DNA from: Bacteroidales bacterium | GTDB lineage: Bacteria; Bacteroidota; Bacteroidia; Bacteroidales; Azobacteroidaceae | Direction of reading: 5' to 3' | Assembly (NCBI GenBank): GCA_031556375.1 | Contig: JAVBTA010000003.1 | Span: 103,319-167,318, forward strand | Length of the DNA: 64,000 bases | Shown here: in pieces, positions 29,260 through 63,079 of the stretch | Layout of the letters: the number at the start of each line of letters is the position of its first letter | Position numbering within the stretch: the first letter of the stretch is position 1 | Notes under the pieces: model-generated | Told to the model about the DNA's origin: nothing | The model's input: the letters and a program-made list of their open reading frames with translations, nothing else | Database searches by the model: none | Made by a program: the position numbers and the translations under genes

Positions 29260-29820
29260 ATGGAAAAAAGAATTGAAATAACAACTCCGTTTACGGATGA
29301 AATAATAAAAGGATTGAAAGCAGGTGATATGGTTTACCTATCCGGAACTATTTATACAGCCAGAGATGCTGCACATAAAAAAATGTGTGAGCTACTGGAG
29401 CAAGGCCAAGCTATGCCATTCGACTTTACAGGATCCGCCATATACTACGCCGGACCATGTCCTGCAAAACCGGGCAAGCCAATTGGTTCTGTCGGACCGA
29501 CTACTAGCGGACGTATGGATCTTTATGCTCCGACCCTTATGAAAGAAGGACTCAAAGTAATGATCGGTAAGGGATTACGGAATAAAGATGTCGTTGATGC
29601 GATTGTCAAGTATTCTGGTGTTTATTTTGCAGCCATCGGTGGCGCTGCCGCCCTGATGGGACAAAGTGTGGAAAATGCAGAAATCATCGCATTCGACGAG
29701 TTAGGTACCGAGGCTGTGCGTAAATTACGAGTAAAGAACCTTCCCGTAATCGTTGCAATCGATTGTGAAGGACGGAATATCTACGAAGAAGGTCGAAAAG
29801 AGTTTGCAGTCAAAGTTTAA
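29260..29820 (+). CDS. Fe-S class I fumarate/tartrate-type hydratase beta subunit, presumed mesaconase beta
   Basis: [21 protein letters not shown]...[34 protein letters not shown] matches the TtdB/FumA C-terminal beta-domain family. 186 aa. Confidence 0.8.
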
Positions 29821-38210: not shown

Positions 38211-38270
38211 GTCCCAAAATTAAGAATTATTTCTAATTTTGCATGCCCACAACAATACAACCCTAATTTG

Positions 38271-39575: not shown

Positions 39576-39639
39576 TTTACTTTTGCAAATAAATCGATTA
39601 TTTTTAACTTTGCAAACTGCAATATCAAAATCCAAATTA

Positions 39640-47360: not shown

Positions 47361-49763
47361 TCAGACTTTAATTTCGTTTTTTGCCTCTTTGTCGCGTTTG
47401 ATACATACATAGAGCAACACTATCGTAATCACCCCATAAACAATGCTTATCGCAGTTACTGCGGGAGGTGCATCGGTTTTACCATACGAATGTAGTCCGC
47501 TCAGATAATAATTCACACCGAAATAAGTCATTAATACACAAAGGAAAGCATATATAGACAGGACATTCAATAAAAAACGGTTTTGTTTACCGGATAACAA
47601 ACGTAGATGAAGAACTGTTGCATAAATGATCATTGTGATCAGAGCCCAGGTTTCTTTCGGATCCCACCCCCAGTACCTGCCCCAGGATTCATTAGCCCAT
47701 ACTGCGCCAAGAAATATTCCTATTGTCAACAAATAAAGCCCCAGAGTCATGGAAAGTTCATTGATGACAGATATTTCATCCAATAGAGCTTTTGACCGTT
47801 GCCGGGGATTAAAACACGAATAGAATACCGTGAATACGCCCAGAAGGAAACTCATTCCGAAAAAACCATAACTTGAAGTAATTATCGCTACATGGAACAT
47901 CAGCCAATGCGACTTCAAGACAGGAACCAGAGGGGTTATTTCCGGATCCATAAAGTTCATATGAGCCACCAGTAATACAAATCCGGCCAGCATCGTTCCC
48001 AGAGCCAGGGTAATTACCGAGCGACGGGAAAATATCAATCCTACCAGTACCGCGCTCCAGGAAACATAAACCATCGTTTCGTAAGCATTCGACCAGGGAG
48101 GTTGTTCCGAGACATACCATCGTAAGGCAATCGCCAGTGTATGAATAATAAAGCCGATGGCAACTAATACAATCCCCGAATAATAAAGCTTTTTCAGGGT
48201 AGAACCCGGCTTCACAATGAACAAAGCCCCAACAATCATCAAAAGAAAGCCAAGGGTAAGATACAACATGAATAGCTTATTCAGAATATCTGCTTTATTA
48301 TAGAAAATTTCTGTTGAAACTTTCGATGGTTTAGGAAGTTCCACCGTCGATCGTGCACTTTGGTAAACACTGATCATGTGTATAACCTCCGATGTAGTAT
48401 CCCAGTTGCCTGTTTCTTTAGCTGAAATCACTTCTTCCTGATACCATGGAAAAATTTTAGCTACAAACAACGAATCCTGGCCTGAGAAAGCCGACAGATC
48501 ATCTCCGGGAGCAAGCCAACGATGATCCTTATCATCAGGTAAAGGGAATATTGCAACCATCTGGCGATGCAGGATCTCAAACAAAATATTGACCTTCTCA
48601 TCAAGCTTGAGCATGTCTTTTTCCAGTCGCGTACGCTTTTCAACGGGTTTGTAATAAATATCTTCAAGATATTTCTCCAGTTTATAAGCTCCTTTTGAGT
48701 CGAAGTTATCATTGAAACTGATATCTGAACCTGAAGTTCCCATCAATTGATGGAGTTCTTCATTTTTTTGGCTTATTAAAGCTACTTCCGACCAATAATG
48801 AGGATAAACCAGCATTCCAAGTAAAACCCGATCGGCATTGAGTTTTCCTATATGATCTTTTTTATGCAGTTTTCTTACGATCTTGGAGGAATAAGTATTG
48901 AATGGTTCAATACGGCCATCTGTAGATTGAACAAGTAGTTTTCCAAACTCAGATGCACTTTCTTTTGTCGGAACAAAATTTTCAGGGTTTCCTGTTGGTT
49001 GCTGGGCATAAACACAAGCAATTCCGCCAAAGAACAGCAATAACAAAGCCCCTGATCGTGCTGTAATCGCTTTCAGTTCCCGAACCAGATTCCTGAAATG
49101 TGAATTTTTCGTCAGAATAATCATTACAAAACCTACCAGCAATAAAAAATAACCGATATAGGTGATGATCATTCCCCAAAAATCGTGATTAATAGTCAGT
49201 ACTGTACCTTTCTCGTCTTTATCAAAAGATGTCTGGTATATACGGTATTGTTGTTCATAAACAACTTTGTTCATAAACACTTTCTCTTCCCTCTCCTGCC
49301 CTTTGGAATAAATAATCAGGTCGCTTTCGAACGAAGACGGATTATTTGAACCGGGATATCGTATCAACCGAAAATCTTTCAATCCGATCTCAAACGGAAG
49401 TTGGACTTCTTTGAGATATTCTCCGTTATCTCCGGCCTGAAGGACTAATGTGGATTGTTTCTCTCCTTCCCGAATATGGATAAGTCCCTCATAACTAAAC
49501 AAATTTGTCACCAAGGCCCCGGAAAGGATAAAAACAAAAGCAATATGCAGTACCATCATTCCCCATTGACCACCAACCCGTTTTTTCCTTGTAAAAATCA
49601 AAACAAAGAAACAAACGATCATCAGCAGCTGTAGCCCATAGACAGCAATATTGTTATAAATATACTTCCTTGCAACTGCTATTCCATACTGATTTTCAAT
49701 GAAAGTAGCAGCTGCAAGCAACAAAGCATACAAAATGAGGAGGAAGATACTTAATTTTCTCAA
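47361..49763 (-). CDS. ccsBA: Cytochrome c biogenesis protein CcsBA (ResB-like + CcsA fusion, System II)
   Basis: The C-terminal CcsA haem-handling WWD domain is WGRYWGWDPKETWALITMIIYATVLH. The N-terminal half is a ResB-like polytopic region. 800 aa. Confidence 0.8.
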   Translation of the reverse strand: MRKLSIFLLILYALLLAAATFIENQYGIAVARKYIYNNIAVYGLQLLMIVCFFVLIFTRKKRVGGQWGMMVLHIAFVFILSGALVTNLFSYEGLIHIREGEKQSTLVLQAGDNGEYLKEVQLPFEIGLKDFRLIRYPGSNNPSSFESDLIIYSKGQEREEKVFMNKVVYEQQYRIYQTSFDKDEKGTVLTINHDFWGMIITYIGYFLLLVGFVMIILTKNSHFRNLVRELKAITARSGALLLLFFGGIACVYAQQPTGNPENFVPTKESASEFGKLLVQSTDGRIEPFNTYSSKIVRKLHKKDHIGKLNADRVLLGMLVYPHYWSEVALISQKNEELHQLMGTSGSDISFNDNFDSKGAYKLEKYLEDIYYKPVEKRTRLEKDMLKLDEKVNILFEILHRQMVAIFPLPDDKDHRWLAPGDDLSAFSGQDSLFVAKIFPWYQEEVISAKETGNWDTTSEVIHMISVYQSARSTVELPKPSKVSTEIFYNKADILNKLFMLYLTLGFLLMIVGALFIVKPGSTLKKLYYSGIVLVAIGFIIHTLAIALRWYVSEQPPWSNAYETMVYVSWSAVLVGLIFSRRSVITLALGTMLAGFVLLVAHMNFMDPEITPLVPVLKSHWLMFHVAIITSSYGFFGMSFLLGVFTVFYSCFNPRQRSKALLDEISVINELSMTLGLYLLTIGIFLGAVWANESWGRYWGWDPKETWALITMIIYATVLHLRLLSGKQNRFLLNVLSIYAFLCVLMTYFGVNYYLSGLHSYGKTDAPPAVTAISIVYGVITIVLLYVCIKRDKEAKNEIKV

Positions 49764-50566
49764 TTTGGCAAATTAAACACAGGTACCAATCCATCCAATT
49801 GTTCGTCGGTCATACCTTGAGGATCAAAGCCTGCCTGACGGGCCGTAAGATAGATTTGGGCTGATTTTGATAATGTATCTATTGCATCAAAAGTTTCGAT
49901 GATATCATCACCAACACAAAGAACCCCATGTTTTTCCCACAGGACAACATCGTGTCTGTCGAGTTGTTTAATAGTCGCTGCTGCAAGTTCCAGTGTTCCT
50001 GGGATTTCGTAAGGAATAATACCGATTCCACGCGGAACAACAATACGGGATTCCGGTATCATCGACCAAAGGATACGTGCCATAACACCCTCTTCCAGGA
50101 ATTTTTTGCCATGTGATAACGCGATCAGGTCTGTAGGATGTGTGTGTAACACCACTTTAATTCCTTTTCCGATCTCACGCATATAGTTATGCATTGAAAG
50201 ATGGGATGGTAATTCACTTGTAGGAGCTACCGGATTTTCGGCTATAATATCATAAGCATCTCCATTATCATTGATACGAATGATCGACCCGTGTTCAAAA
50301 GGGGATTTCGCTACATACCTCATTCTTTTTCCGGTTCCTGTAACATAGAAATAATTACCACGTAAATGATCGAATTTAAGAGGTAACGGTATGCTTGGAA
50401 CTAATCCCGGCAACGATTTGATTTCATTTGTCACATATTCCGTCAGATTAACGGATATATTTCCACCGTTACGTTCCGCCCATCCTTTTTCCCAAAGGTA
50501 ACCTGCTACTTCGGCTATTTTACCGATTTCATGCATTAATGCAGCATTTGCTCTGATACTATTCAT
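49760..50566 (-). CDS. Class II aldolase/adducin-family protein (rhamnulose-1-phosphate aldolase-like)
   Basis: ERNGGNISV, PTSELPSHL, VVLHTHPTDLIALS and GIGIIPYEIPGT parallel RhaD motifs. 268 aa. A 4-nt overlap with ccsBA. Confidence 0.65.
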   Translation of the reverse strand: MNSIRANAALMHEIGKIAEVAGYLWEKGWAERNGGNISVNLTEYVTNEIKSLPGLVPSIPLPLKFDHLRGNYFYVTGTGKRMRYVAKSPFEHGSIIRINDNGDAYDIIAENPVAPTSELPSHLSMHNYMREIGKGIKVVLHTHPTDLIALSHGKKFLEEGVMARILWSMIPESRIVVPRGIGIIPYEIPGTLELAAATIKQLDRHDVVLWEKHGVLCVGDDIIETFDAIDTLSKSAQIYLTARQAGFDPQGMTDEQLDGLVPVFNLPN

Positions 50567-50662: not shown

Positions 50663-53600
50663 TTAATCCTCTATAACTACACGAAATCCTACATTATAAA
50701 CCTTTTGCCAGGGTAAATATGCTTTTCTGACATAAGCAGCCGATGCTTTAGGATGTTCAATCCAGGAACCTCCCCTTACCACCTTTTCTTCTGTCGTTGC
50801 AGTTTTTTTGTCGCTCAACGGATAAGGAAGATAATCCGAACGGGTCCATTCTGCAACGTTTCCGTGGATGTCATAGATTCCCCATACATTCGGTTTGTAG
50901 CTACCCGGTTTTGCTACAAGCATATTGCCATCATCCACGCTTTCTTCCTTTGGATGCCATGTATAATACTTATACCAGCGGTTTTTCTCTCCCATTGGCT
51001 GAGGATCGACCCCTGATACTGCCATTTTATTCATTTGCTTATCAGCCATATTTTCAAAAGCGGCAAAATTATCATTGAAACTTCCATACCAGAATGGAGC
51101 ATCATTACCGGCTCTACAAGCCCACTCCCATTGTTGTTCGGTTGGTAAAGTCACTTTAAGACCTGTTTTTTCACCGAGTTTTTTACAATAATCCATTGCT
51201 TCCTGCCAGCTGACACGTATTACGGGTTGTTCCGGTTTATTCGCAGGATAACCCTCATTTACATGGTCTTTCCACTGTTGATCAAAGAATTTGCTGTCAT
51301 GTTGTGGAAAAAATACACGGAACTGTTCATTTGTAACCTCCATCTCAGCTATCCAGAACGATTTTTTCACTTCAGCTGCAAATGCAGGAGAATAATCGGA
51401 TGGTTTGTTGTTAGTGCCCATAATAAATTTTCCGGCAGGAACTTTCACAAATTTCATACTAATTCCAGGAGCAATTTCTATCATTTTAGATGTTTCTCCT
51501 GCTTTTGCCAACATAGAATATGCTTCCTGATTATCAAAGGGATAACCTTTCACTTTGACATCTTTATAATTTACCTCTTTTTTAACCGGTTTAACCTGAG
51601 TAGGTTTAGGTTGTTTACTCAAATAACCGGCATAATTCCGTATTTCACCTTTCCAGTCAACACCAGCTTCGTTGGCATACTTATCCGTCAGTTCAATGCG
51701 CCTTTGGATCTGATCACAATTATTATATTCCTCCGCACGCATAGTACTATGATAAGGAGCATTGAAATCGATCCAGTTATAAAGTGTTTTCCACTCTTTT
51801 TCAGTCAATTCCACTCCATGGTGACCTTTTTTCAACATAGAGATCAGAGGACTGGTAGAAACGTGGTATTCATAAGGATATAATACTTTCATACCAGCTT
51901 CAGGTCCCTGACGGTGAACATACGGATGCAAATCGAGATAACTTTTACTGTAGGCCAATTTATTCGGCACCTCTTCATCAATACGACCACCTCTGTAATC
52001 ACGCTTGAGAGAACCATTGTGACAAGCCACACAAGCCCTGTCTAAAATAGGCTGTATCTCTAATTCGAAAGTAAAAGGACGTACTCCCCCTTCCGGAATC
52101 GTTAAGTTTTTTGCAGGTTTCAAGGAAGCCATTGCCCGCTTAGGCTTAGGTATCTGATTCTGATCTTCGTGGCAGCCCACACAGGAAACTACTTCACCAG
52201 GCATGCCGGTCAACCAGCTTCTCATCCACTGGATAGCAGCTCCGTCCTTATCCAAGGGTTGAAGTGAAACCGGAGTATTAGCCGGGATATTAAACATCAC
52301 AGAACCATCATCTTCAACAGGTACCACCCCCAAAAGACGTTTGATGTCCCATCCGCTTTGAATACCCTGAGCCACGTGATCCGATTGAGAACGGTTGTAT
52401 GCATATTCATACGCAAATACACGTAAAGATTTCACAGTTCCTTTCGGTACATTCGGCAAACCTTCTCCTTCGTAAATATCCTGAATGAAAACGGTAGCTT
52501 CTTTTTTACTTTCATTTATCTTTGAAGGAATTACCGGAGGTGTCTGACGTTTAATCAATGGAATACCGTGAATATATCCGGCACCTTCTTCCAATACAAT
52601 TGGAGTGATATTATCGTAAATATCAACAAGATACAATCCCCATAAGCTATTCTCGTTCAACTTTGCTGTTACAAGAAAATATTTATCACTGATCGGATAA
52701 GGTTTGATAAATTGAGGATATACACCATTAACCAATTCATCCTTAACCAATGGAATGATCGGACGTTTACTGAATGGAATCTCCTGCAACATACCTTTTT
52801 CCTCTTTCCTGCTTTTTGCAGGATCAAAGGTCATCAGACGACCACTGCGAGCCACTCCATGATGACCGGAAATAATTCCGACAAACTGAGTTGTACCATT
52901 GGGTAATGGTTGAACATCAAAAGTACTGTTTGGAAAGACAGAACCACTACCATAAAGTGAGCGTTGTTCCGTACCGTCGGGATTCATGTGCATGACCATA
53001 CGCGAAAAATAGTGTGTCAAGTCGGTATATTCCCAACGAACATACATCAGACGACCGTTATTCATTACCGTAGGATGCCAGTTTGCATCCTGATCGAATG
53101 TCAAACGTCTGATTTTACCGGTTTTAGGATCGTAATTAATCATGTTTCCAACAGCATCGCTACCATTCACACAAGGCACAGCCTGATAACCTATATTTGA
53201 AACAGCAATAACCTTATTATCAGGGAGATATGTTCCATCAAAAAATTCCAGGTCTTTTTCTGTCGTTGTGATCATCTGTTTGAAATTTTTTCCGTCGATT
53301 CCGACTTCATATACATTCCAGAGATTATTCTCGTTGATCATTGAAAACATGACGCGATCTCCGTTCCAATGTAACTTCAAATCCGGCACAGACGATGTAT
53401 TTGTAGGCTTGAATATAGTTCTGTACTTGATATCTCCACGCAGGTTATTCATCTCCATGATTTCAGCATTGAATCCTTTTCTGGCAGCAGAAGACTGATT
53501 TGACCAGTTATTCGGCTGTGTACCAAGAGAATGTGCGCTATTCTTGCGGGCATTAACTCCGATAGTATATTTACTAACCAATAGTCTGTCCATATCCAAA

Positions 53601-54277
53601 CCCGGATTAGACAAAAGGATATCACGTTTTAATTTCAGGGCTTTCTCTGCCGAAGCAATCGCCGCCGGATCATTCGAATAAATACCGTCAAATCCTTTAT
53701 TAATCAATAATTTAAGTTCTTTTAACAGGGAAAGAGCCTGAACCAGATTAAAAGACGGACTGGATTTCATATCATTTATTGCGGCTTCGATAGAGGGCAC
53801 ATTAAGCCATTCTAACTGTTCGTCGAGCCTATTGATATTAGAAGCAACTATAAATAAATCCAGTAATCCGGTGGCCCGTGCTTCAGGATTGCTCAGCTTC
53901 ATTTGTTCTTTTGCCTTCGATTGAATATATGAGGGTTTTCGGATATATTTACAAATATCTTCAACCATAGCGTATTCAATGGAATCTCCTATAGTTGTAA
54001 AAAATATCTTCCGATCCTGAGGTTCCAGATAGGTCATTGAGAAGCCTGTTTCCAGTGGAAATTGCTTGTACAGGGCCTCTATTTCAGGATTAACGTTCAA
54101 TGAATCGAGAGGTATATTCTCCTTCTTTACTTTATCCATCACGGACTTCTTTGTAGTTATGACAGCTTCCGTCCAACTTACCGGTGTGCAATTTAACGAA
54201 GCTTTCTTACTTCCCTTCTGTGCAAAAACAGAAATAGTGAAGCAAAAACAGATCATAATAATCAGATTTTTCTTCAT
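50663..54277 (-). CDS. Secreted 1204-aa protein: TolB-like beta-propeller + di-haem c-type cytochrome region (HzsA-like architecture) + C-terminal FGE-sulfatase (SUMF1-like) domain
   Basis: Signal peptide MKKNLIIMICFCFTISVFAQ. Beta-propeller-like repeats. Two CxxCH motifs, SCVGCHEDQ and ACVACHNGS, about 45 aa apart. The C-terminal approximately 300 aa read ...WGIYDIHGNVAEWT...RGGSW..., typical of the FGE-sulfatase/GldJ-K fold. Confidence 0.65.
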   Translation of the reverse strand: MKKNLIIMICFCFTISVFAQKGSKKASLNCTPVSWTEAVITTKKSVMDKVKKENIPLDSLNVNPEIEALYKQFPLETGFSMTYLEPQDRKIFFTTIGDSIEYAMVEDICKYIRKPSYIQSKAKEQMKLSNPEARATGLLDLFIVASNINRLDEQLEWLNVPSIEAAINDMKSSPSFNLVQALSLLKELKLLINKGFDGIYSNDPAAIASAEKALKLKRDILLSNPGLDMDRLLVSKYTIGVNARKNSAHSLGTQPNNWSNQSSAARKGFNAEIMEMNNLRGDIKYRTIFKPTNTSSVPDLKLHWNGDRVMFSMINENNLWNVYEVGIDGKNFKQMITTTEKDLEFFDGTYLPDNKVIAVSNIGYQAVPCVNGSDAVGNMINYDPKTGKIRRLTFDQDANWHPTVMNNGRLMYVRWEYTDLTHYFSRMVMHMNPDGTEQRSLYGSGSVFPNSTFDVQPLPNGTTQFVGIISGHHGVARSGRLMTFDPAKSRKEEKGMLQEIPFSKRPIIPLVKDELVNGVYPQFIKPYPISDKYFLVTAKLNENSLWGLYLVDIYDNITPIVLEEGAGYIHGIPLIKRQTPPVIPSKINESKKEATVFIQDIYEGEGLPNVPKGTVKSLRVFAYEYAYNRSQSDHVAQGIQSGWDIKRLLGVVPVEDDGSVMFNIPANTPVSLQPLDKDGAAIQWMRSWLTGMPGEVVSCVGCHEDQNQIPKPKRAMASLKPAKNLTIPEGGVRPFTFELEIQPILDRACVACHNGSLKRDYRGGRIDEEVPNKLAYSKSYLDLHPYVHRQGPEAGMKVLYPYEYHVSTSPLISMLKKGHHGVELTEKEWKTLYNWIDFNAPYHSTMRAEEYNNCDQIQRRIELTDKYANEAGVDWKGEIRNYAGYLSKQPKPTQVKPVKKEVNYKDVKVKGYPFDNQEAYSMLAKAGETSKMIEIAPGISMKFVKVPAGKFIMGTNNKPSDYSPAFAAEVKKSFWIAEMEVTNEQFRVFFPQHDSKFFDQQWKDHVNEGYPANKPEQPVIRVSWQEAMDYCKKLGEKTGLKVTLPTEQQWEWACRAGNDAPFWYGSFNDNFAAFENMADKQMNKMAVSGVDPQPMGEKNRWYKYYTWHPKEESVDDGNMLVAKPGSYKPNVWGIYDIHGNVAEWTRSDYLPYPLSDKKTATTEEKVVRGGSWIEHPKASAAYVRKAYLPWQKVYNVGFRVVIED

Positions 54278-54291: not shown

Positions 54292-55200
54292 TTATTGTTT
54301 ATTCTTGTATTCAGATGATTTTTTCAAGTCTTTATTTTTAACAGGAAATACACAGGATATCCTTCCAATACCGTTTCCTTCCGACAGTTGCCACATTAAT
54401 TTATTGTCCTGTGTAATTTCAATTAAAGCCGGTTGATTGCCATCCTCCCCTTTCGCATGACCGTTCCAGTTGCAAATCAACAAGTTATTATTATCCAATT
54501 CGACTATTTGTGCAACAAAATTCAAGCGAATCCCTTCAATATCTTTTTGTCCGATTTTTCGGATTAATTGGCCTGTCTTCCGTTCCACTTCCAATGCCGA
54601 ATGGGCATCTCCGCATGCAATCAACAGATTTCCGTTTTTTAGTTCAACGATTGAAAACGGATTTCCTTCAACCTTAAAGCGCATCACTTCTTCTCCCTCA
54701 GGACTTATTTCGACGACCTCTCCTTTTGCCATGACAGGAAATAGATAATTCCCGTTTTTAGCTTTGATTAATTGTCGCATTTGTCCGTGCAGACTTTCAA
54801 CTCCAGTTTCAAAAGAGAGTTTTTTCACTTCTTTCCCTTTCTTGTTCAACTCAATTATTTTGGCCGGAGAACCACTATGAGCCAGTAGAAACCCTCCGTT
54901 TGGCATTTGAGTGGCAGCATAAAGCTCCCCTTTTTCCTCCAGCTTATAATCCCAGATTACTTCTTTCTTCGCATTAATAAGTTTTGCACCTTTCTTATAC
55001 GAAATCAACAAATTTCCGTCTTTAGTCAATGTAATGTTTTCACAATCATCACTTTTTTCCAAATCGTATGTCCACTCGATCTGCTTCGTATTTTTATCAA
55101 TTAAAACCACCTGTTGCCATCCACAACCACTGATAAAGATCTTATCCTGAGCAAGAAGGCTACAGGGTAAAAGAAGAAAAAGAAAAGCCAAATACTTCAT
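54292..55200 (-). CDS. Secreted beta-propeller-like protein of unknown function
   Basis: Signal peptide MKYLAFLFLLLPCSLLAQ. Repeated G-x-L-L patterns (NGNLLI, DGNLLIS, NNLLIC) suggest propeller blades. Confidence 0.45.
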   Translation of the reverse strand: MKYLAFLFLLLPCSLLAQDKIFISGCGWQQVVLIDKNTKQIEWTYDLEKSDDCENITLTKDGNLLISYKKGAKLINAKKEVIWDYKLEEKGELYAATQMPNGGFLLAHSGSPAKIIELNKKGKEVKKLSFETGVESLHGQMRQLIKAKNGNYLFPVMAKGEVVEISPEGEEVMRFKVEGNPFSIVELKNGNLLIACGDAHSALEVERKTGQLIRKIGQKDIEGIRLNFVAQIVELDNNNLLICNWNGHAKGEDGNQPALIEITQDNKLMWQLSEGNGIGRISCVFPVKNKDLKKSSEYKNKQ

Positions 55201-55276: not shown

Positions 55277-56149
55277 TCAATTCGATAAGTCCTCAAATAA
55301 CTGATAAGCCTCATTAACCGAGTAATTCTTATGAACAACTGCGCTAACGGCCTGTATCATAGCAATCGGATTTTCAGACTGGAATACATTACGTCCCATA
55401 TCCACACCGGCAGCACCATCATTGATTGCATTATAGCATAGTTCCAGAGCTTCTTTTTCCGGAAGTTTTTTACCACCTGCAATTACAATAGGTACGGGGC
55501 ATGCTGCAACAACGTTTTCAAATCCGTCGCAATAATAGGTTTTTACGATATTCGCACCATTTTCGGCACAAACACGGGAAGCCATACCAAAATAACGGGC
55601 ATCACGAGCCATATCTTTACCAACAGCAGTAACTCCCATTACAGGAATATTATATTTTGAACCCAAATCTGCCATTTTATAGAGATTCGCAACCGTTTTT
55701 GCTTCCATAGCCGGATCTCCGATAGCGAGCATAATAGCCATAGCAGATACATTCATCCTGATTGCATCCTCAATATCGATTACAACATTATCATTCAATT
55801 CCGTAAGGATAGTTGTTCCGGCATCCGATCGCAAACAAATAGGTTTATTGATATTTGCAGGAACTGATGATTGCAAAATACCGCGGGCACACATCAAGCA
55901 GTCCGCATACTCCATTAACGGGGTGATATTCAAGTCAATCCGTTCCAAACCTGAAGTAGGTCCCATGATGAACCCATGATCAAAAGCCAGCATCACTGTC
56001 CGTCCGCTTTGTGGGTTGAAAATACGTGTCAGCCTGTCTTTCATTCCCCAGGGAAGATTATCAGCACCTTTTACATGGAATGCCCGGTTTTTCACTTCAA
56101 CACCGATTCCAAATTTTTTACCTTCTCTGATATCGTCTAAATCTGCCAT
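55277..56149 (-). CDS. lsrF: LsrF-type class I aldolase/thiolase (DhnA/FbaB-DeoC superfamily; 3-hydroxy-5-phosphonooxypentane-2,4-dione thiolase-like)
   Basis: MADLDDIREGKKFG...TVMLAFDHGF..GPT.GLERIDLNI...GANIVKTYY...CPVPIVIAGGKKLPEKEALE...DMGRNVFQS is nearly colinear with enterobacterial LsrF as I recall it, including the Schiff-base lysine context IVKTYY. 290 aa. Confidence 0.75.
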   Translation of the reverse strand: MADLDDIREGKKFGIGVEVKNRAFHVKGADNLPWGMKDRLTRIFNPQSGRTVMLAFDHGFIMGPTSGLERIDLNITPLMEYADCLMCARGILQSSVPANINKPICLRSDAGTTILTELNDNVVIDIEDAIRMNVSAMAIMLAIGDPAMEAKTVANLYKMADLGSKYNIPVMGVTAVGKDMARDARYFGMASRVCAENGANIVKTYYCDGFENVVAACPVPIVIAGGKKLPEKEALELCYNAINDGAAGVDMGRNVFQSENPIAMIQAVSAVVHKNYSVNEAYQLFEDLSN

Positions 56150-56191: not shown

Positions 56192-56800
56192 TTACTCTGC
56201 AAATGCCTGGAACATACAAGCCCATGATGAAGCTCCTGAATCAGCGTAACCTATGGATTTTTCTCCGTAATTGCGGGCTCGCCCGAAGTTTGCTTTCATT
56301 TCGATAGTAGCTTCTGCCCCTGTTTTAGCGGCTTTAGCAGCTTCTGTAAAGAGTTGGGTAATATCATCCGAATCACAAGCCAACATTGCATCTACAGCAG
56401 GAATCAGGGCATCCATCATTGTTTTGTCGCCTTTTTGAGCCTGAGTTTGTTTACATACACCCTCCAGACCTCCCTTGAAGAGTTGTTTGACCTGTTCCGC
56501 ATTCATTTCTGTTCCTTCAACATGGTCGCTCATTCCGAGAAGAAAGCCACCAATTAAAGTACTGGTAGAACCACTGGTTTGCATCATCACATTGAATCCC
56601 ATGTCATTAAGCATAGTCTTCAGTTCCGTACCTTTCTTTGCAGCTTCCACAACAGAAGTCAGAGCCTGAACGATGGCTGTTCCATGGTCTCCGTCTCCAA
56701 TTACAGCGTCTAATTGAGAGAATTCATCAGCACGTTCGGTTACACGAACCAAAGCACGTTCCCACATGCTGATGAAGTCTTGTATAGTTAATTTTTGCAT
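56192..56800 (-). CDS. dhaL: Dihydroxyacetone kinase-type ADP-binding subunit
   Basis: AVIGDGDHGTAIVQALTSV is the DhaL signature DGDxG. 202 aa. Confidence 0.8.
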   Translation of the reverse strand: MQKLTIQDFISMWERALVRVTERADEFSQLDAVIGDGDHGTAIVQALTSVVEAAKKGTELKTMLNDMGFNVMMQTSGSTSTLIGGFLLGMSDHVEGTEMNAEQVKQLFKGGLEGVCKQTQAQKGDKTMMDALIPAVDAMLACDSDDITQLFTEAAKAAKTGAEATIEMKANFGRARNYGEKSIGYADSGASSWACMFQAFAE

Positions 56801-56804
56801 ATTA

Positions 56805-57845
56805 TTAAATCGTAGTCCAGTAAGGAGCGTTTGCTCTGCGTTTTAGAAGTTCAACATGATCGGCATCCAGTTTACCCAGCATCATTTGGAATCCTGAAAG
56901 TTCTTGAACTGTAAGGATTTCCATTAATTTTGCATCAGCAACTTCAATACCGGCATCCATTAGTATCTGGTGAGCTTTACGGAAAACAATACTCATTTCC
57001 ATATGAGTTGTAGCGCCGCTTCCATTGATGTAAAGCATTACTTTATCTCCTTTTTCAGGCTGGATCTTCTTGCACAACTGGTTAATCATGATTTCAGCCG
57101 TTTTATCCGCAGATTCTAACATCTGACGGCCATTGCTTCCGCCTTCACCGTGTTGTCCCATACCGATTTCCATTTCACCTGAAGGCAGGCTGGAGATAAC
57201 CGCACCATTCTGAGGATGAGTACATTGTCCCATAGCCACGGCCAAAGTAGCGATTTGTTTGTTGAAACGTTCACCGATTTCGCAGATCTCATCAAGGCTT
57301 TTTCCTTCTTCAGCGGCAGCACCTACTATTTTAGCTAGAGGTACACAACCGGCCAAACCCCGTCTGTCTTTATCCGGAGTATCCAAACCGGAACTGATAT
57401 CGTCGTGAGTCAGAATCGATTTTACTTTGATACCTGCCTTTTCTGCGAGCATTGTTGCCATATTGGCACTCATCACGTCTCCGGAATGATTCAAAACGAT
57501 TAACAGGATACCGGCATCACGTTTGAACATTTGCAAAGCCTGGAAAAGACGTTGAGCACCTGGAGCAGCAAAGATATCGCCGACAACAGAGCAATCCAGC
57601 ATACCTTCTCCGACAAATCCACTCAATGCAGGTTCGTGTCCTGAACCTCCTAAAGTAATGATTGCCACTTTCTTTTCGTCCTTCGGTTGAGCTCTTACCA
57701 CAATATTTTCGCCGCCTAAAGCAACTTTATCATTATAAGCCAACACATATCCTTCCAGTAATTCTTTTGTTATATTTTCGGGTTCATTGATGAACTTGGT
57801 CATAATCTTACTCATGATATTATTTTTTAAAGGTTTATTTATCAA
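56805..57845 (-). CDS. dhaK: Dihydroxyacetone kinase-type substrate-binding subunit
   Basis: ITLGGSGHEPALSGFVGEGMLDCSVVGDIFAAP carries the DhaK GGGSGHEP signature and the substrate His. 346 aa. Confidence 0.85.
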   Translation of the reverse strand: MINKPLKNNIMSKIMTKFINEPENITKELLEGYVLAYNDKVALGGENIVVRAQPKDEKKVAIITLGGSGHEPALSGFVGEGMLDCSVVGDIFAAPGAQRLFQALQMFKRDAGILLIVLNHSGDVMSANMATMLAEKAGIKVKSILTHDDISSGLDTPDKDRRGLAGCVPLAKIVGAAAEEGKSLDEICEIGERFNKQIATLAVAMGQCTHPQNGAVISSLPSGEMEIGMGQHGEGGSNGRQMLESADKTAEIMINQLCKKIQPEKGDKVMLYINGSGATTHMEMSIVFRKAHQILMDAGIEVADAKLMEILTVQELSGFQMMLGKLDADHVELLKRRANAPYWTTI

Positions 57846-58152
57846 AACACATTAACTCGATTGGGATACCTTCTTCTACGATAAAAGCGATAGTCAGGTT
57901 TTCTCCACCCGGACATGGCTCTACAATTACGTTTGCACCCTTTAAAGCTTCTTCCATATTTGGCACTTCGTATGCAATATGAGGAACTTTCTGAATAATT
58001 TCAGGCAACCAGCTTCCTTCTTCAAAACGAAGGAACTCAATTCTGTTCGGACTTTTTGAATAATCGGTCAAATGAACTTTCATTCCATCTACAAAAAACT
58101 CTCCTTGTTGACTTTCGCAAGTCGGAATTCCGTAATGATTAATTTTTCTCAT
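57835..58152 (-). CDS. Small hypothetical protein (possibly VOC/glyoxalase-like half-domain)
   Basis: 105 aa. Its stop overlaps the dhaK start by 11 nt, implying translational coupling. No clear motif. Confidence 0.4.
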   Translation of the reverse strand: MRKINHYGIPTCESQQGEFFVDGMKVHLTDYSKSPNRIEFLRFEEGSWLPEIIQKVPHIAYEVPNMEEALKGANVIVEPCPGGENLTIAFIVEEGIPIELMCFDK

Positions 58153-58179: not shown

Positions 58180-58872
58180 TTATTTTCTCATTCCTGCCAA
58201 AGCGTCTGTAAATACAGCACCCGGATTAGTAAAACGCAAACCATTACCATCGTGATAATTTGCATATTCAGTAACTATTGCACCTTCAGGGCCCGCAAAC
58301 AAGAAGTGTGGAGATTCTGCTTCGGCCAAATGAATTACTTCATCAACCATTTGTTTCTGGAAATGAGAAACAGTGATAAAATCTTTCTGACTTGCCGGTA
58401 AAACAGGAGGATTAGGAGTTGGGTCTCCGATTGAATAGTTGTAAGTCCAACCGTGACGAACCTGCCAGCTTTCAAATTTAGGAGGATGGTTTGTTGCTAC
58501 GTGACGGTGTTCCAGGATCATTTGTCCGGGTAATAAGTAGATTTCATGTCCGAAATAAGCATGAGCTTCATCGTTTACCCAGAATAAACCTGCCATTCCT
58601 ACATTTTCGAAGTCTCCCAGTTCAAAATCGGTGATCCACAGATTATTTTTTACAAACTCGGAATATGGAACTCCATAATAATCAAGCATATCCAGATATG
58701 CATCCAGAGCGACTTTAGGATCCAATTTTCCATCTTTGTAAAAATCCGCATTTGTGTACTTTTTCTTGTACGGTTCTTTTGTTTGCATAACTTCTTCTTT
58801 TTTAGTTTCACCGGAACAAGCTACTAAAGCAACCCCGATTATTAAGATCATTAAATTTTTAATTGTTTTCAT
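58180..58872 (-). CDS. Cupin-fold lipoprotein (possible sugar isomerase)
   Basis: Lipobox LVACSG. Cupin-like His cluster LPGQMILEHRHVATNHPPKFE. 230 aa. Confidence 0.45.
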   Translation of the reverse strand: MKTIKNLMILIIGVALVACSGETKKEEVMQTKEPYKKKYTNADFYKDGKLDPKVALDAYLDMLDYYGVPYSEFVKNNLWITDFELGDFENVGMAGLFWVNDEAHAYFGHEIYLLPGQMILEHRHVATNHPPKFESWQVRHGWTYNYSIGDPTPNPPVLPASQKDFITVSHFQKQMVDEVIHLAEAESPHFLFAGPEGAIVTEYANYHDGNGLRFTNPGAVFTDALAGMRK

Positions 58873-58886: not shown

Positions 58887-60044
58887 TTATTTCAAGTTTA
58901 TTTTATTTTCTATCAATGCAATTCCCTCTATTTCAACCAATAATTCATCCCGGCATACATCAGCCAGGACATAACAAACCGGAACTTTCGCATATTTTAC
59001 CTTTACTACATTACGTGCCGCTTCCAGATATTTACAGCCTTTCAGATATACCCGTAAAGAGCAGATCCGGCCATATCCTTTCAACCCGGACTTAGATTCA
59101 CTTAAGGTTTGACCGGATATCAAATGCTCTACATTTTCCAATGTAATCCTGGTCTGTTCTTCTATTCCAACGTCTGCAAGGCTATTTTCACCACGGATTG
59201 CAGCCGTTCCTGAGACATAAATCAATCCTGATCCGTTTTCTAAAACTAATTTGGCTCTCTCAAATTTAGGAGTCGTTTTCTGCTTCAATTCTTTATCTTC
59301 CTCCCCGATCAACACTTTTTCCGAATAACCGAATGCAGGCACCTGTAAGCTATTATCAAGCGGAATTATCCGGTTTTCCGGAGTTGTAAAACAAAATGCT
59401 TCCAGATCGATCATTATTCCTCCGAAAGAAGTACCGATGCCTGTTGCCGCAGGAAAACCATTGTTCCAGATTGCAGAAGTATAGAAATGAGTTCTCGCAT
59501 CATTAAAATCCTGATAATGCTGATGGGTTCCTTCTATTTTTGTGATTTGCTCTATATAATTCCATTGACGGACAATAGACGAAACCGGCATGTTTTCACA
59601 AATAAAAATGTCTTTTAATTTAGAAAAAACCTGATCTGACTGTGTCCTGATCGAGTTTTTTAATGAATCTGCCAGAACTCCTCCGACAAACAGTTTTTTT
59701 GATTTTCCGTTTTGGAGAATAATATATGGTAAATCGTTTTGTTTCTTATAATGAACTTCTGTTCCGGCCTCCCACTCTGCCTCAAAAACTTCGAGGATTA
59801 AAGTATCCTGTTCCAGAGGAGGTTGAGCCACATAACTAAAAACCGGAGCTTTTTCTTCAAATTTACGTTCTACAAACCGAGCAATTAACGTTAAATGCTT
59901 CTTGTACTCTTCGTTATCCGTTGGATTTCCGAAAAATACAAGTCTTATAATTGTTCCTGTTTCAAAACCGGAATTAAATAAATAATCCAGTTGTTCTTCG
60001 ATTGAATTTCCTTTACTTTGTATATAATTACACTTAATAAACAT
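58887..60044 (-). CDS. Two-domain protein with a C-terminal RidA/YjgF-like domain (possibly FkbO/Hyg5-like chorismatase family)
   Basis: The C-terminal 120 aa read LIYVSGTAAIRGENSLADVGIEEQTRITLENVEHLIS...CRDELLVEIEGIAL, which is the RidA fold pattern. The N-terminal approximately 250 aa are unassigned. Confidence 0.5.
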   Translation of the reverse strand: MFIKCNYIQSKGNSIEEQLDYLFNSGFETGTIIRLVFFGNPTDNEEYKKHLTLIARFVERKFEEKAPVFSYVAQPPLEQDTLILEVFEAEWEAGTEVHYKKQNDLPYIILQNGKSKKLFVGGVLADSLKNSIRTQSDQVFSKLKDIFICENMPVSSIVRQWNYIEQITKIEGTHQHYQDFNDARTHFYTSAIWNNGFPAATGIGTSFGGIMIDLEAFCFTTPENRIIPLDNSLQVPAFGYSEKVLIGEEDKELKQKTTPKFERAKLVLENGSGLIYVSGTAAIRGENSLADVGIEEQTRITLENVEHLISGQTLSESKSGLKGYGRICSLRVYLKGCKYLEAARNVVKVKYAKVPVCYVLADVCRDELLVEIEGIALIENKINLK

Positions 60045-60046: not shown

Positions 60047-61843
60047 CTACAGAGAGTTAACATATTCCACCAATGCTTCGATTTCCTTTTTGGAAACCTT
60101 CTTATCGATCCCATGTTTATGTACCGTAAAGACATCCTCCATGGTTGCAGCTCTTCCATCGAAAAGATAAGGAGCTGTACGCCAGGATTCTATCAACGTA
60201 GGGGTATCCCAACCAGTCTCAAATTCGATATCTTGTCCAATACGGTGCAGTTTCATATCTGTAAAATAAACTCCGGAATGACATTCACCACAACTGAGCT
60301 TATCAAATATCTTTTTCCCTTGTTCTGCTTTTTCAGATAATTTTCCATTAACAAGATACGGGCTTGGAACCGGACGAAGCGATCTCAGATAGTCATCTAC
60401 ACAAACGGCCTTTTCTTCCGGGATCTCGGCAAACTGAATCAGTGCAAATCCCTTTCTTACAGCCAGATCTGCAGATTCACGAATTCCGGAAATCATAGAA
60501 GGGGGAGTTACATGACTGTAAAGCATACTTTTACAGTTTTTCGGATTACCTATTCCATCGTTCATCAAATCCCAGTTCATCCCATCGGTTCTGGCATCCG
60601 GGTGACAACCGATACAGGATTGCCAACCCTGGAAACAGTATGCAGCATCATGGAAATATTTCTCTCCTTTATTTGCCGACGATTCAATCCGGTTTACGAC
60701 TAAAGGACGATTTTCCACCTTATTGTCAGCTAAATTGAGAATATTTAATGTATCTGAAAAATAAGTCGGGATATATACTTTATCATTTGAAACGACAAAG
60801 TTTCGCGGACCGTTTCCTATCAATGAGATACGTTGTTTTAGTCCGTATAAAAAGCGTAAATCATAATCCAGAGAAGATTTATCAGGATATGCGATAAATC
60901 TTTCAATCATCTTCGGATAATCGACAATGCTGATTTCATGGGTGCCGGAATGTGAAATAACAAGCTTATCCGGCGTACAGTGAATTCCCCAGATCCCGGC
61001 AGCGCCTCGTTCCGGATCATCCAACAGTATCGAGCCCAGATTTTCAAATTTTGCAGCATCTACTATTGTAATCGCACTGGTATTCATCCAGCCTTGTTGC
61101 AATTGGTTGGTAGGCACCTGGAAACGTCCCAGATTGTGAGTAATGAAAACGTACTTTCCATCGGGACTCAAACACATTCCTCGTAACGCATTACTTCCGT
61201 TTGCCAGTTGAATATCTTTTATTTTGGTGAAATTTTTCAGATCGATGACCGATACACAAGACGCGACTGTGTCAATATCCGCACGTTGTTCAGGTAAATA
61301 GTTCGAAACAAATAAATACCGGTTATCCTGGCTAAGTACCGCGCATGCGGGCTCTCGTAAGACTTTTACGGTATTAACAACCTCCGCTTTTGACAGATCG
61401 ATCTCACTGACAGTTGTCTGAAACTGATTCATGACATACAATGTCTTTCCATCGGAAGAAAGCACGGGAGAAGTAGCTCCGGAACCGGTTTCCAGAACTT
61501 TTTCCACAACTCCGCTTTCAAGATTCAGAAAATGTACCTCACCTATTGCTTCAAAAGTCGTAACATAAGCATATTCACCCGAAGTAACAACTCCGGTTGG
61601 CGCTTGAGGAAATGTCCAGGTCTTCACCGGTTTATCAAAATCGACGTTATATAATTCTAATGTTTTATTTCCTCTATTTGTTATCAGGAATTGATGGTTG
61701 TCTGTTTCTTTAATATCTGTGGGATAATGGGGATATGAAGCTTTATCAGCTTGATCACCAACTGAAGTAGAACTTAGAGATAAGGTTGTCAGACTTACCG
61801 CAACCAGCAGTATTAAATAAGGTATTAATGAATTTTTATACAT
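60047..61843 (-). CDS. Secreted YVTN-type beta-propeller protein with a C-terminal di-haem cytochrome c domain
   Basis: Signal/TM N-terminus. Repeated ~40-residue blades (DGKTLYVMNQ, DNRYLFVSNY, DGKYVFITHN). Two CxxCH motifs, SCIGCHPD and SCGECHSG, about 100 aa apart. Confidence 0.65.
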   Translation of the reverse strand: MYKNSLIPYLILLVAVSLTTLSLSSTSVGDQADKASYPHYPTDIKETDNHQFLITNRGNKTLELYNVDFDKPVKTWTFPQAPTGVVTSGEYAYVTTFEAIGEVHFLNLESGVVEKVLETGSGATSPVLSSDGKTLYVMNQFQTTVSEIDLSKAEVVNTVKVLREPACAVLSQDNRYLFVSNYLPEQRADIDTVASCVSVIDLKNFTKIKDIQLANGSNALRGMCLSPDGKYVFITHNLGRFQVPTNQLQQGWMNTSAITIVDAAKFENLGSILLDDPERGAAGIWGIHCTPDKLVISHSGTHEISIVDYPKMIERFIAYPDKSSLDYDLRFLYGLKQRISLIGNGPRNFVVSNDKVYIPTYFSDTLNILNLADNKVENRPLVVNRIESSANKGEKYFHDAAYCFQGWQSCIGCHPDARTDGMNWDLMNDGIGNPKNCKSMLYSHVTPPSMISGIRESADLAVRKGFALIQFAEIPEEKAVCVDDYLRSLRPVPSPYLVNGKLSEKAEQGKKIFDKLSCGECHSGVYFTDMKLHRIGQDIEFETGWDTPTLIESWRTAPYLFDGRAATMEDVFTVHKHGIDKKVSKKEIEALVEYVNSL

Positions 61844-61856: not shown

Positions 61857-62660
61857 TCATGTATTGCTATAACCTAACTCAAAAGAAATATTCTGAGTAA
61901 TATTCTGTATTTCATTCGCAAACATCAGGATTGTTTCTCCCGGCAACCGGTCTTTCGGACCAGAGATCCAGATAGATCCGCAAGGGGCATTACTATAATT
62001 GAATATAGGCACTCCTATGCATACAACTCCATTCAATTCTTCTTCCATATCGACAGCATAACCCAATTTGCGGACTTTATCCAATTCCAGCAGATATGCT
62101 TCTTCTGTTGAGATTGTATTTCGGTTGTATATCTGATAATTCATTTTTGATAAATAGTCCTTCCTGGATTCTTCCGGCATAAACGCCATCATGGCTTTTC
62201 CCGGAGCCGAACAATGCAAATCGAATGATTTTCCCGGAGAGAGGACAAAGCAAAACGGATGTGTTCCTAAAACCTGTTCGATAAAAAGACCCTTATCCGT
62301 ACCCATAACACCGAAACAAACTGTTTCTTTCACAATATCACGCAGTTCACGCATTTTAGGCAGTACAACCTCTAACAGGCTGTGTTCCTGTATAGATTGA
62401 AAGCCTAAGATAAGCATTTTTCTTGAGAGTTTATATTTTTTTGACGAATTATTGTAGAGTAAGTAACCTAATCTGACTAATGTATTAAGGATCCGGTAAG
62501 TTGTAGTCTGCGAAATATCGGCTTCATTTCTGATTTCCTGCAAAGTCATTCCCCTATTAGCATTGGCTAACAGTTCAAGTATTAATATTCCCTTTTCAAG
62601 ATTGGGGACTTTGTAAGAATCGTCTAATTCTTCAGGTGTGTTTTTCATATTTGAAATCAT
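61857..62660 (-). CDS. IclR-family transcriptional regulator
   Basis: N-terminal wHTH (GMTLQEIRNEADISQTTTYRILNTLVRLGYL) plus an IclR effector domain. Start chosen at an internal Met. It heads the same-strand array at its upstream end. Confidence 0.75.
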   Translation of the reverse strand: MISNMKNTPEELDDSYKVPNLEKGILILELLANANRGMTLQEIRNEADISQTTTYRILNTLVRLGYLLYNNSSKKYKLSRKMLILGFQSIQEHSLLEVVLPKMRELRDIVKETVCFGVMGTDKGLFIEQVLGTHPFCFVLSPGKSFDLHCSAPGKAMMAFMPEESRKDYLSKMNYQIYNRNTISTEEAYLLELDKVRKLGYAVDMEEELNGVVCIGVPIFNYSNAPCGSIWISGPKDRLPGETILMFANEIQNITQNISFELGYSNT

Positions 62661-62746
62661 TTTCCAGATTCGAAACAAAAATAAGCATTTCAAATGAATG
62701 TTTTAAATTCAATTAGTTAAATTTAGTTAAATATCAATCAACAAGC

Positions 62747-63079
62747 CTAAATATTGTCAATTGGATTCCAGAATATTTGCTTCCAGTTTTTAATCCGGTT
62801 GTTAGCAACCTCAATCCCCTCGTTTTCCAACAATTTTTGCATTTCCCCACCAGTACCAAATACTTCACTGGCGGTTAATATCCCCTGGCTATTCACAACA
62901 CGATGAGCCGGAATACCTGTTTCAACAGAATTACATTCACTCATAATCTTTCCGACTTTTCTGGACCAATTAGGATATCCCACAGCCTTAGCGATGGCTC
63001 CGTAGCTCGTTGCACGGCCATAAGGTATAAGTTTTACAATATCGTAAACCGCTTGACTGAGAGATTCCTTTCCTGCCAT
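62747..63079 (-). CDS. Alkyltransferase-like (ATL) protein: MGMT DNA-binding domain lacking the catalytic Cys
   Basis: The MGMT C-domain helix-turn-helix is present, but the active site reads IPAHRVV (PAHRV instead of PCHRV). 110 aa. Confidence 0.7.
   Translation of the reverse strand: MAGKESLSQAVYDIVKLIPYGRATSYGAIAKAVGYPNWSRKVGKIMSECNSVETGIPAHRVVNSQGILTASEVFGTGGEMQKLLENEGIEVANNRIKNWKQIFWNPIDNI

Follow-up and report, generated by a model that had tools for sequence, protein, structure and literature searches.

To our knowledge, hydrazine synthase (HZS), the key enzyme of anammox, was long believed to be without relatives. Only in 2025 were distant homologues of its alpha and beta-gamma subunits described, as co-localised alpha and fused beta-gamma genes in Planctomycetota, Desulfobacterota and a few other groups (Hagglund et al. 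2025, PMC12758564). These homologues, which make up clades I-IV and come from non-anammox anaerobes, have a canonical haem alphaI, are missing key HZS residues including the Tyr region, and are of unknown function. The same paper notes beta-gamma homologues in Bacteroidota and lists, in a supplementary table, one 1110-amino-acid (aa) Opitutales protein named 'SUMF1/EgtB/PvdO' among weak HzsA matches; formylglycine-generating enzyme (FGE), sulfatase and SUMF1 go unmentioned in its main text. A wider family of HZS-like enzymes with other substrates has also been proposed (Dalcin Martins et al. 2023, PMC10732223). Here, we describe a gene from a Bacteroidales bacterium of the Azobacteroidaceae that encodes a 1204-aa HzsA-like di-haem protein ending in an FGE-fold domain, which we call alpha-FGE. 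It lies at 50663-54277 on the minus strand of the window, by which we mean the whole stretch of 64,000 nucleotides (nt) that was analysed (assembly GCA_031556375.1, contig JAVBTA010000003.1, positions 103,319 to 167,318). Its architecture and its neighbours make it very probable that alpha-FGE is the alpha-type subunit of a periplasmic four-haem HZS-like complex.

A sequence-only reading of this interval had proposed a secreted protein in which a TolB-like propeller, a middle region and a di-haem c domain, laid out as in HzsA, are fused to a C-terminal FGE-fold domain. On the minus strand, the interval is exactly one open reading frame (ORF), 1204 aa long; the plus-strand frame has stops throughout and gives no ORF. 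All of the strings quoted in that reading are found in the translation, namely SCVGCH (CxxCH at aa 699-703), ACVACH (CxxCH at aa 749-753), WGIYDIHGNVAEWT and RGGSW (aa 1168-1172), and by inspection the N-terminus resembles a Sec signal peptide, in keeping with secretion. The gene and its parts are as follows.

50663-54277, minus strand: alpha-FGE gene, 1204-aa HzsA-like di-haem protein, FGE-fold domain at the C-terminus (ORF and translation, Pfam, AlphaFold2, Foldseek)
54218-54277, minus strand: signal peptide, aa 1-20, MKKNLIIMICFCFTISVFAQ (Sec-type by inspection)
53615-54175, minus strand: N-terminal all-helical domain, about aa 35-221 (DSSP of the model; predicted local distance difference test score, pLDDT, above 90)
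52553-53587, minus strand: beta-propeller, about aa 231-575 (model; Foldseek matches to HzsA and TolB; co-linear profile pieces over HzsA chain 79-397)
52166-52441, minus strand: HZS_alpha middle domain, aa 613-704 (PF18582)
52169-52183, minus strand: putative haem-binding motif 1, C699-V-G-C702-H703 (SCVGCH), aligned with the HzsA haem alphaI motif Cys583/Cys586/His587
52019-52033, minus strand: putative haem-binding motif 2, C749-V-A-C752-H753 (ACVACH), aligned with the HzsA haem alphaII motif
50675-51454, minus strand: FGE-sulfatase-fold domain, aa 942-1201, PvdO-like (PF03781; PDB sequence and fold matches)

The likeness to HzsA is seen in both fold and sequence. An AlphaFold2 model of the mature protein, computed with 70 homologues (mature numbering plus 20 gives full-length numbering), has a mean pLDDT of 83.4 and a predicted template modelling score of 0.78. 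In mature numbering, residues 1-10 are disordered and are followed by the helical N-domain (15-201), the propeller (211-555), a middle domain rich in beta structure (573-680), a haem domain made mostly of helices (696-870) and the FGE fold (about 896-1184). The top PDB match of this model in Foldseek is HzsA of Kuenenia stuttgartiensis (5c2v_A; E 1.6e-21, 799 columns, 15% identity, target TM-score 0.59), with a match that spans the whole 768-residue chain; TolB-type propellers are ranked below it, and the TolB-like propeller is thus backed by the model and by Foldseek matches to both HzsA and TolB. The HzsA-like middle is recovered by PF18582 (HZS_alpha) with an E-value of 1e-37 (129 bits against a cut-off of 26.6), and when aa 600-860 are searched against the PDB with phmmer, hydrazine synthase alpha (5c2v_A) is the sole match. 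In this alignment, VSCVGCHE pairs with RICSGCHY (haem alphaI) and RACVACHNG with AKCAMCHDS (haem alphaII), where chain positions 556/559/560 of 5c2v_A are Cys583/Cys586/His587, the offset being derived from His587 as in PMC12758564. A profile of the HzsA-like part matches HzsA with an E-value of 1.2e-17, in co-linear pieces that run from the propeller to haem alphaII (chain 79-668). The propeller, the middle domain and the two predicted c-type haems of alpha-FGE therefore come in the same order as in 5C2V chain A, and the proposed layout stands on profile searches, on the alignment of the CxxCH motifs to alphaI and alphaII, and on fold comparison. A cytochrome c7 match that spans both CxxCH motifs lies below the Pfam threshold, and the two linker regions have no Pfam match at E<=10.

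Conservation follows the same architecture. None of 126 aligned sequences (70 close homologues and 56 distant ones with 32-53% identity) departs from either CxxCH motif, a conservation that the sequence-only reading had named as a check on its haem domains. His819 is likewise invariant among the 56 distant relatives, and in the propeller Cys369 and His472/His473 are invariant in the conservation alignments. Mean identity among the 56 is highest in the middle domain (56%), followed by the FGE-fold domain (41%), the propeller (38%) and the haem domain (34%). The helical N-domain, at 10%, is where the family varies; elsewhere, NPCBM, F5/8 type C or PKD modules take its place or extend it.

When compared to HzsA, alpha-FGE has two additional parts, the N-terminal helical domain and the C-terminal FGE-fold domain, and it differs at the sites that define the HZS active centres. 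HzsA has an unusual haem alphaI, with proximal Tyr591 at +4 of the motif His and with His587 and Cys303 binding zinc. In alpha-FGE, the +4 position is Asn707, and in the 56 relatives it is N, S, G, D or T and never Tyr. The invariant Cys369 was considered as a counterpart of the zinc ligand alphaCys303; the co-linear profile mapping, which is approximate, speaks against this, placing Cys369 within HzsA chain 120-215 and not at chain 276 (Cys303). Haem alphaII of HzsA is bis-His with distal His772, for which the invariant His819 is a candidate counterpart only. The NCBIfam model hydrazine_alpha (NF052339) fails on alpha-FGE, with 59.6 bits against a cut-off of 800. In the partner protein, beta and gamma are fused, unlike in the 5C2V complex, and gamma Cys165, the third covalent link of haem gammaI in HZS, is replaced by Val. 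The hosts of the relatives are fermentative Bacteroidales, unlike anammox cells; no anammox genes are found in the window or in the related loci examined, and genes of the hydroxylamine oxidoreductase and hydrazine dehydrogenase (HAO/HDH) type are absent from the operon and from the other scanned ORFs of the window. Alpha-FGE is not a hydrazine synthase: a true HZS is ruled out by the absence of Tyr591 and of gamma Cys165, by the equivalog score and by the organism.

The strongest evidence for an HZS-like complex comes from the operon, a context that the sequence-only reading missed, and lies in a fused HzsB-HzsC homologue and a dedicated CcsBA. With this context the finding gains in strength: the HZS-like set is complete, and it lies in a metabolic operon that is conserved among common anaerobes of the gut and the environment. 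The operon runs from 62693 to 47361 and consists of 12 minus-strand genes, separated by -11 to 96 nt. The other 11 are given below in operon order, with alpha-FGE standing between the Mala_s_1-like propeller and the RhaD-like aldolase.

61857-62693, minus strand: IclR-family regulator, the first gene (PF09339 and PF01614)
60047-61843, minus strand: beta-gamma, 598 aa, secreted, HzsB-like propeller plus HzsC-like domain of the di-haem cytochrome c peroxidase (CCP)/MauG kind (PDB matches)
58887-60044, minus strand: chorismatase-family protein (FkbO/Hyg5 plus RidA fold), 385 aa, no signal peptide (PF21168 and PF01042)
58180-58872, minus strand: D-lyxose/D-mannose isomerase-family cupin lipoprotein, 230 aa (profile, model, Foldseek)
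57835-58152, minus strand: cluster-specific protein, 105 aa, like vicinal oxygen chelate (VOC)/glyoxalase proteins by a source's name and inspection only
56805-57845, minus strand: DhaK-type kinase subunit (PF02733, E 1.6e-95; TIGR02363, 286 bits, below the cut-off of 406)
56192-56800, minus strand: DhaL-type nucleotide-binding kinase subunit (PF02734, E 1.3e-39; TIGR02365, 134.3 bits, just below the cut-off of 138.3)
55277-56149, minus strand: LsrF-type class I aldolase/thiolase of the DeoC/LacD family (NF006081, 462 bits, above the cut-off of 297; PF01791)
54292-55200, minus strand: Mala_s_1-like beta-propeller with its own signal peptide (PF22701, E 1e-55)
49760-50566, minus strand: RhaD-like class II aldolase, accessory (NF002963, 302.8 bits, above the cut-off of 170)
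47361-49763, minus strand: CcsBA (ResB and CcsA fusion), system II cytochrome c haem lyase, the last gene (PF05140 and PF01578; TIGR03144, 192.5 bits, above the cut-off of 187.6)

The 598-aa protein is assigned as a beta-gamma fusion because its two best PDB matches are HZS beta and HZS gamma (5c2v_B, E 6.7e-19; 5c2v_C, E 3e-16). Its two CxxCH motifs (CIGCH at 410-414 and CGECH at 518-522) are invariant in 55 loci, as are two cysteines outside these motifs, Cys403 and Cys437, which may be joined in a disulfide or provide a further haem link of another kind. The column of gamma Cys165 holds Val462 (V in 50/55), and gamma His144 falls in an alignment gap. The gamma part resembles MauG and di-haem cytochrome c peroxidases in its CCP_MauG family matches and in having two CxxCH motifs at the expected spacing; it differs from them in sitting behind a seven-bladed HzsB-like propeller and in the extra Cys403 and Cys437. 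As in HZS, a beta- and gamma-type partner is thus encoded near the alpha-type subunit, and alpha-FGE and beta-gamma together carry four haem motifs. From their sequences, the predicted partners of alpha-FGE in the operon are the fused HzsB-HzsC homologue and the Mala_s_1-like propeller, with the dedicated CcsBA attaching the haems. The Mala_s_1-like protein, whose probable start is an internal Met of its ORF (MKYLAFLF...), is likely the third periplasmic partner.

The remaining genes are mostly of metabolic type. The cupin lipoprotein has no Pfam match at E<=10; its profile matches 7nzo (E 6e-22) and 2y0o (E 1e-17), and its model (pLDDT 90.9) superposes on isomerase structures with target-normalised TM-scores (TMt) of 0.87-0.90 and a root-mean-square deviation of 1.5 A. 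The four metal ligands His122, His124, Glu134 and His189 are invariant, and the lipobox Cys19 is kept in at least 90% of homologues, so that this isomerase-type cupin would be tethered outside the cytoplasm, which is unusual for its family. The chorismatase-family protein matches Hyg5 (5ag3, E 1.2e-23) and FkbO (4bps, E 2.6e-10) in the PDB, and the LsrF-type aldolase also matches ADH-synthase and BagB/FevI models. The 105-aa protein, whose gene overlaps the start of the DhaK ORF by 11 nt, has no Pfam match at E<=10 and nothing credible in a phmmer search of the PDB; its 162 detectable homologues, at least most of them from Bacteroidales, include some named 'related to lactoylglutathione lyase', and identity across related loci is 42-92%. 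The slot after alpha-FGE is variable, being filled by the RhaD-like aldolase here and in close relatives only and by a DAHP_synth_1 protein in the Bacteroides version (L001, 14103-14840). No nitrogen-cycle genes are found among the operon annotations. A sigma-70 promoter and terminator scan of the operon, which does not cover Bacteroidetes promoters, gave fewer matches than shuffled sequences. Just upstream of the IclR gene, at 62747-63079 on the minus strand, lies a 110-aa protein that consists of the O6-methylguanine methyltransferase DNA-binding domain only.

Alpha-FGE is not rare. An exact look-up of the window's own protein returned no record, and the wider gene context was therefore read from relatives. 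A pattern scan of one genome per species gives at least 578 confirmed relatives, in Bacteroides, Parabacteroides, Alistipes, Rikenella, Odoribacter, Prevotella, Phocaeicola and Fermentimonas and, among the matches listed, also in Marinilabiliales and one Verrucomicrobiales genome. The nearest relatives among the matches listed come from a Bacteroidales metagenome-assembled genome (89%) and a Dysgonamonadaceae one (86%). In a library of representatives at 50% identity, there are 2133 clusters with a match at E<=1e-30, and over 100 of them align over about aa 190-1184 (mature numbering). When the operon proteins of the window are searched by tblastn against 84 alpha-FGE loci, beta-gamma is found in 55, the cupin in 52, the LsrF-like aldolase in 51, the Mala-like propeller in 50, DhaL in 49, the chorismatase-like protein in 48, DhaK in 47, the 105-aa protein in 46, CcsBA in 35, IclR in 34 and the class II aldolase in 4; these counts are lower bounds, as many of the loci sit on incomplete contigs. 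Two gene orders occur, both co-directional: that of the window, and a Parabacteroides type in which alpha-FGE and CcsBA are inserted after the cupin. There are also minimal loci with beta-gamma and alpha-FGE only (L041, L077) or with IclR, beta-gamma, cupin and alpha-FGE (L023). A complete alpha and beta-gamma set with a dedicated haem lyase is therefore common in fermentative Bacteroidales, and its carriers include the cultured, genetically tractable human-gut genera Parabacteroides, Bacteroides and Alistipes. With the set tied to an isomerase-kinase-aldolase operon and to polysaccharide utilisation loci (PULs), the role of HZS-like complexes outside anammox becomes directly testable, and a route opens to the ancestry of the key anammox enzyme. 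New haem chemistry in gut glycan or sugar metabolism may also come to light.

Fusions link the same proteins. In a set of 31 long members, all carry HZS_alpha and FGE-sulfatase, and many add F5/8 type C, NPCBM, Laminin_G_3, PKD or SASA modules. In two chains (P0192, 3230 aa; P0197, 2831 aa), alpha-FGE is followed by a complete beta-gamma in one chain, together with PKD and other modules; P0197 is from Verrucomicrobiota (MEI6075845.1), and its full length is seen in six cluster members from NCBI and ENA. In two others (P0208, P0264), a Mala_s_1-like propeller is fused to alpha-FGE. Such fusions speak for physical cooperation between the three proteins.

A second setting for the family is the PUL. 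Eight lone paralogues lie directly behind SusC/SusD, some with a hybrid two-component system regulator (HTCS): L009, L045, L047, L050, L065, L071, L072 and L084. In the two that were checked (L084, 229-13402; L045, 815-13327, Parabacteroides gordonii), both haem motifs are retained, the paralogue is the last gene of the PUL, and no beta-gamma gene lies within 10 kb; one layout is HTCS-SusC-SusD, and the other has, besides SusC-SusD, a 978-aa protein that carries a xylose-isomerase-like TIM barrel. In Parabacteroides massiliensis the two kinds of copy occur side by side in one species, one of the array type (L021) and one of the PUL type (L050).

The clade I-IV clusters differ from these loci in content, with FG-GAP/CRTAC1 and ABC substrate-binding genes and, in some, extra c554-type haems (PMC12758564), whereas here the alpha subunit is fused to an FGE fold and its neighbours are CcsBA, the lyxose-isomerase cupin, the chorismatase-like protein, DhaK/DhaL and the LsrF-like aldolase. 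Full-text literature searches, with most subscription journals outside their coverage, turned up no functional study and no mention of the operon in Bacteroidales, of the fusion to an FGE fold or of the paralogues in PULs, in keeping with the sequence-only view that the protein has no characterised counterpart.

The C-terminal domain is clearly of the FGE-sulfatase fold, as had been read from its motifs (PF03781, E 2e-41, 142.8 bits against a cut-off of 23.3). It shares this fold, and the motifs LPTExEWE, GNVxEWT, RGGSW and NxGFR, with FGE, EgtB, OvoA and SenA. It is nevertheless PvdO-like and not a copper FGE. In an alignment to human SUMF1, Cys336 corresponds to Glu1174 and Cys341 to Ser1179; across the 56 relatives, the first column is D, S, E, N or T and the second mostly Ala, with the Cys pair in none. 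As the catalytic pair is missing throughout the family, the domain is unable to act as a copper FGE, and this activity was ruled out as a candidate. The sulfoxide-synthase equivalogs also fail (TIGR03440, 46.7 against 360 bits; SenA, 45.7 against 420; OvoA, also below its cut-off), and the EgtB-type DinB iron-binding domain, whose triad precedes the FGE fold, is not found in alpha-FGE by Pfam. With no DinB-type domain, no Cys pair and failing equivalog models, the database name 'nonheme iron enzyme' is unsupported, and our analysis corrects both this and the equally widespread 'formylglycine-generating enzyme required for sulfatase activity'. Judged from its sequence, the domain is an intact, constrained fold and not a formylglycine-generating enzyme.

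The best match of the domain is instead PvdO, both in PDB sequence searches (followed by SUMF1, SUMF2, PorK and ToxD) and by fold (TMt 0.75 in Foldseek, with FGE and pFGE also matched). The PvdO equivalog NF051459 fails (78.3 bits against a cut-off of 500), as do those of GldK/PorK (TIGR03525, 71.8 against 350 bits) and GldJ (TIGR03524, 23.5 against 458 bits). PvdO of Pseudomonas pyoverdine maturation (5HHA) is, like alpha-FGE, a periplasmic protein with an FGE fold that lacks the FGE catalytic cysteines; the difference is that in alpha-FGE the domain shares one covalent chain with a di-haem HzsA-like body. The last periplasmic oxidation of a chromophore depends on PvdO, which is cofactor-less and inactive when purified and has been suggested to need an electron-transport partner (PMC6206403). 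No pyoverdine (pvd) genes are found among the annotated operon genes.

Taken together, we propose that alpha-FGE belongs to a periplasmic four-haem HZS-like redox complex that acts on a carbohydrate-derived substrate, the product of which is then catabolised, and to this full reading we give a probability of roughly 0.45. The invariant haem motifs and the retention of CcsBA are the grounds for predicting a complex that is periplasmic and redox-active. Its substrate would be carbohydrate-derived because relatives bear lectin-type modules and paralogues are components of PULs, and because the constant neighbours are isomerase, kinase and aldolase genes of the kind that ends in dihydroxyacetone phosphate, under an IclR-type regulator. 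In the proposed scheme, the substrate would arrive in the periplasm, in the case of the PUL-embedded paralogues by way of SusC/SusD, and undergo a redox reaction at the complex, most likely being oxidised. By analogy with PvdO, the FGE-fold domain probably binds the substrate, in relatives together with NPCBM or discoidin modules, and the haems would provide both the catalytic site and an electron path, an electron-transfer partner of the sort suggested for PvdO, fused here into the same chain. The product would pass to the lipoprotein D-lyxose-isomerase-type cupin and, after uptake, to the DhaK/DhaL kinase, the small VOC-like protein, the chorismatase-like hydrolase and the LsrF-type aldolase/thiolase, with dihydroxyacetone phosphate as the end product; the IclR regulator would control the whole array. 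As a guess, peroxide could serve as the oxidant in these strict anaerobes through the CCP/MauG-like gamma domain.

Several points weigh against this scheme. The link to carbohydrate comes from gene association and accessory modules only, and haem attachment itself is predicted from the CxxCH motifs. No inner-membrane transporter and no gene for a quinol or other electron donor or acceptor is found in the annotated arrays, and some loci consist of beta-gamma and alpha-FGE only or have no DhaK, DhaL or LsrF genes within 10 kb. A periplasmic lipoprotein sugar isomerase is unusual. Finally, the chorismatase-like enzyme and, in Bacteroides, the DAHP-synthase-like gene fit biosynthesis as well as catabolism.

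Biosynthesis is accordingly the first alternative, in which the cytoplasmic enzymes would build a chorismate- or sugar-derived molecule that is exported and finished by a periplasmic PvdO-like, haem-dependent oxidation, as in pyoverdine maturation. The chorismatase-family match (E 1.2e-23), the additional matches of the aldolase to ADH-synthase and BagB/FevI models, the DAHP_synth_1 gene of the Bacteroides version, and the action of PvdO in the final periplasmic oxidation of a chromophore (PMC6206403) all lend themselves to such a route. The annotated arrays, however, contain no exporter and no nonribosomal peptide synthetase, polyketide synthase or tailoring genes, and the PUL-embedded paralogues and glycan-binding modules indicate uptake rather than export. 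IclR regulators and isomerase-kinase-aldolase sets are typical of catabolism, and on balance we regard a biosynthetic role as improbable.

The HZS-like architecture itself allows a second alternative, namely that nitrogen oxide chemistry has been kept. Here, the gamma-like haem would reduce NO, or species derived from nitrite, to hydroxylamine, which would pass through a tunnel to the alpha-like haem to be condensed or detoxified, making the complex a periplasmic system of gut anaerobes for handling NO and hydroxylamine. Alpha and beta-gamma keep the full four-haem layout, down to the beta propeller, which in HZS provides the tunnel between the sites, and a beta-gamma fusion occurs in Scalindua too (PMC12758564). 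Against this stand the lack of Tyr at +4 of the haem-1 His in 56 relatives, the replacement of gamma Cys165 by Val, the gap at gamma His144 and the hydrazine_alpha score of 59.6 against 800 bits; moreover, the operon holds sugar-type enzymes with no nitrogen-cycle gene, and the paralogues lie in PULs. These differences leave retained nitrogen chemistry quite improbable.

A third alternative takes the gamma part, a member of the CCP_MauG family, as the guide to function. The complex would then be a peroxide-driven modifier of proteins, in which the FGE fold binds a peptide, such as the CxPxR motif of sulfatases, and the haems oxidise it, providing an O2-independent periplasmic alternative to FGE and the anaerobic sulfatase-maturating enzyme (anSME). 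In true FGE, this fold binds sulfatase peptides, and relatives of alpha-FGE occur in Verrucomicrobiota, a phylum noted for its many sulfatases. The two catalytic cysteines of FGE are nevertheless absent in 56/56 relatives, no sulfatase gene is found in the annotated arrays, and DhaK/DhaL, the aldolase and the isomerase would be left unexplained, which makes such a modifier very improbable. A non-catalytic structural or adhesive surface protein like GldJ, GldK or PorK, with the haem motifs as relics, is hardly credible: sequence and fold searches with the C-terminal domain do match GldK/PorK, and relatives have PKD and lectin-like modules, but in 56 relatives with 32-53% identity the two CxxCH motifs and His819 never vary, a dedicated haem lyase is co-encoded, and the haem-bearing middle domain is the most conserved part.

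Beyond the HZS-like redox complex on a carbohydrate-derived substrate, one may ask whether the family represents an unrecognised class of haem-c-dependent glycan- or sugar-processing enzymes in the periplasm of anaerobic Bacteroidales, human gut genera among them, and of Verrucomicrobiota. These would be four-haem complexes of the same stock as HZS, with a PvdO-like binding domain, that convert a carbohydrate-derived substrate oxidatively or with some other redox assistance. We put this forward as a tentative and rather doubtful generalisation. If true, it would show the type of partner needed by cofactor-less PvdO-type proteins, and some copies would be the sole enzyme-like gene beside SusC/SusD in a PUL, as in L084.

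Elsewhere in the window, we observe a cluster of the methylaspartate pathway of glutamate fermentation (21050-29820, plus strand), with MutL, the glutamate mutase E chain, methylaspartate ammonia-lyase, an AtuA-like protein and a class I fumarase/mesaconase-type hydratase. A 1933-aa cargo protein of the type IX secretion system (T9SS) is encoded at 15133-20934 on the plus strand and has a trypsin-like peptidase domain, PKD, BACON and Ig domains and a Por_Secre_tail. At 38202-41229 on the plus strand, a GldB-like gliding lipoprotein with LysM is followed by a second LysM protein, which is consistent with a Bacteroidota host having gliding and T9SS genes.

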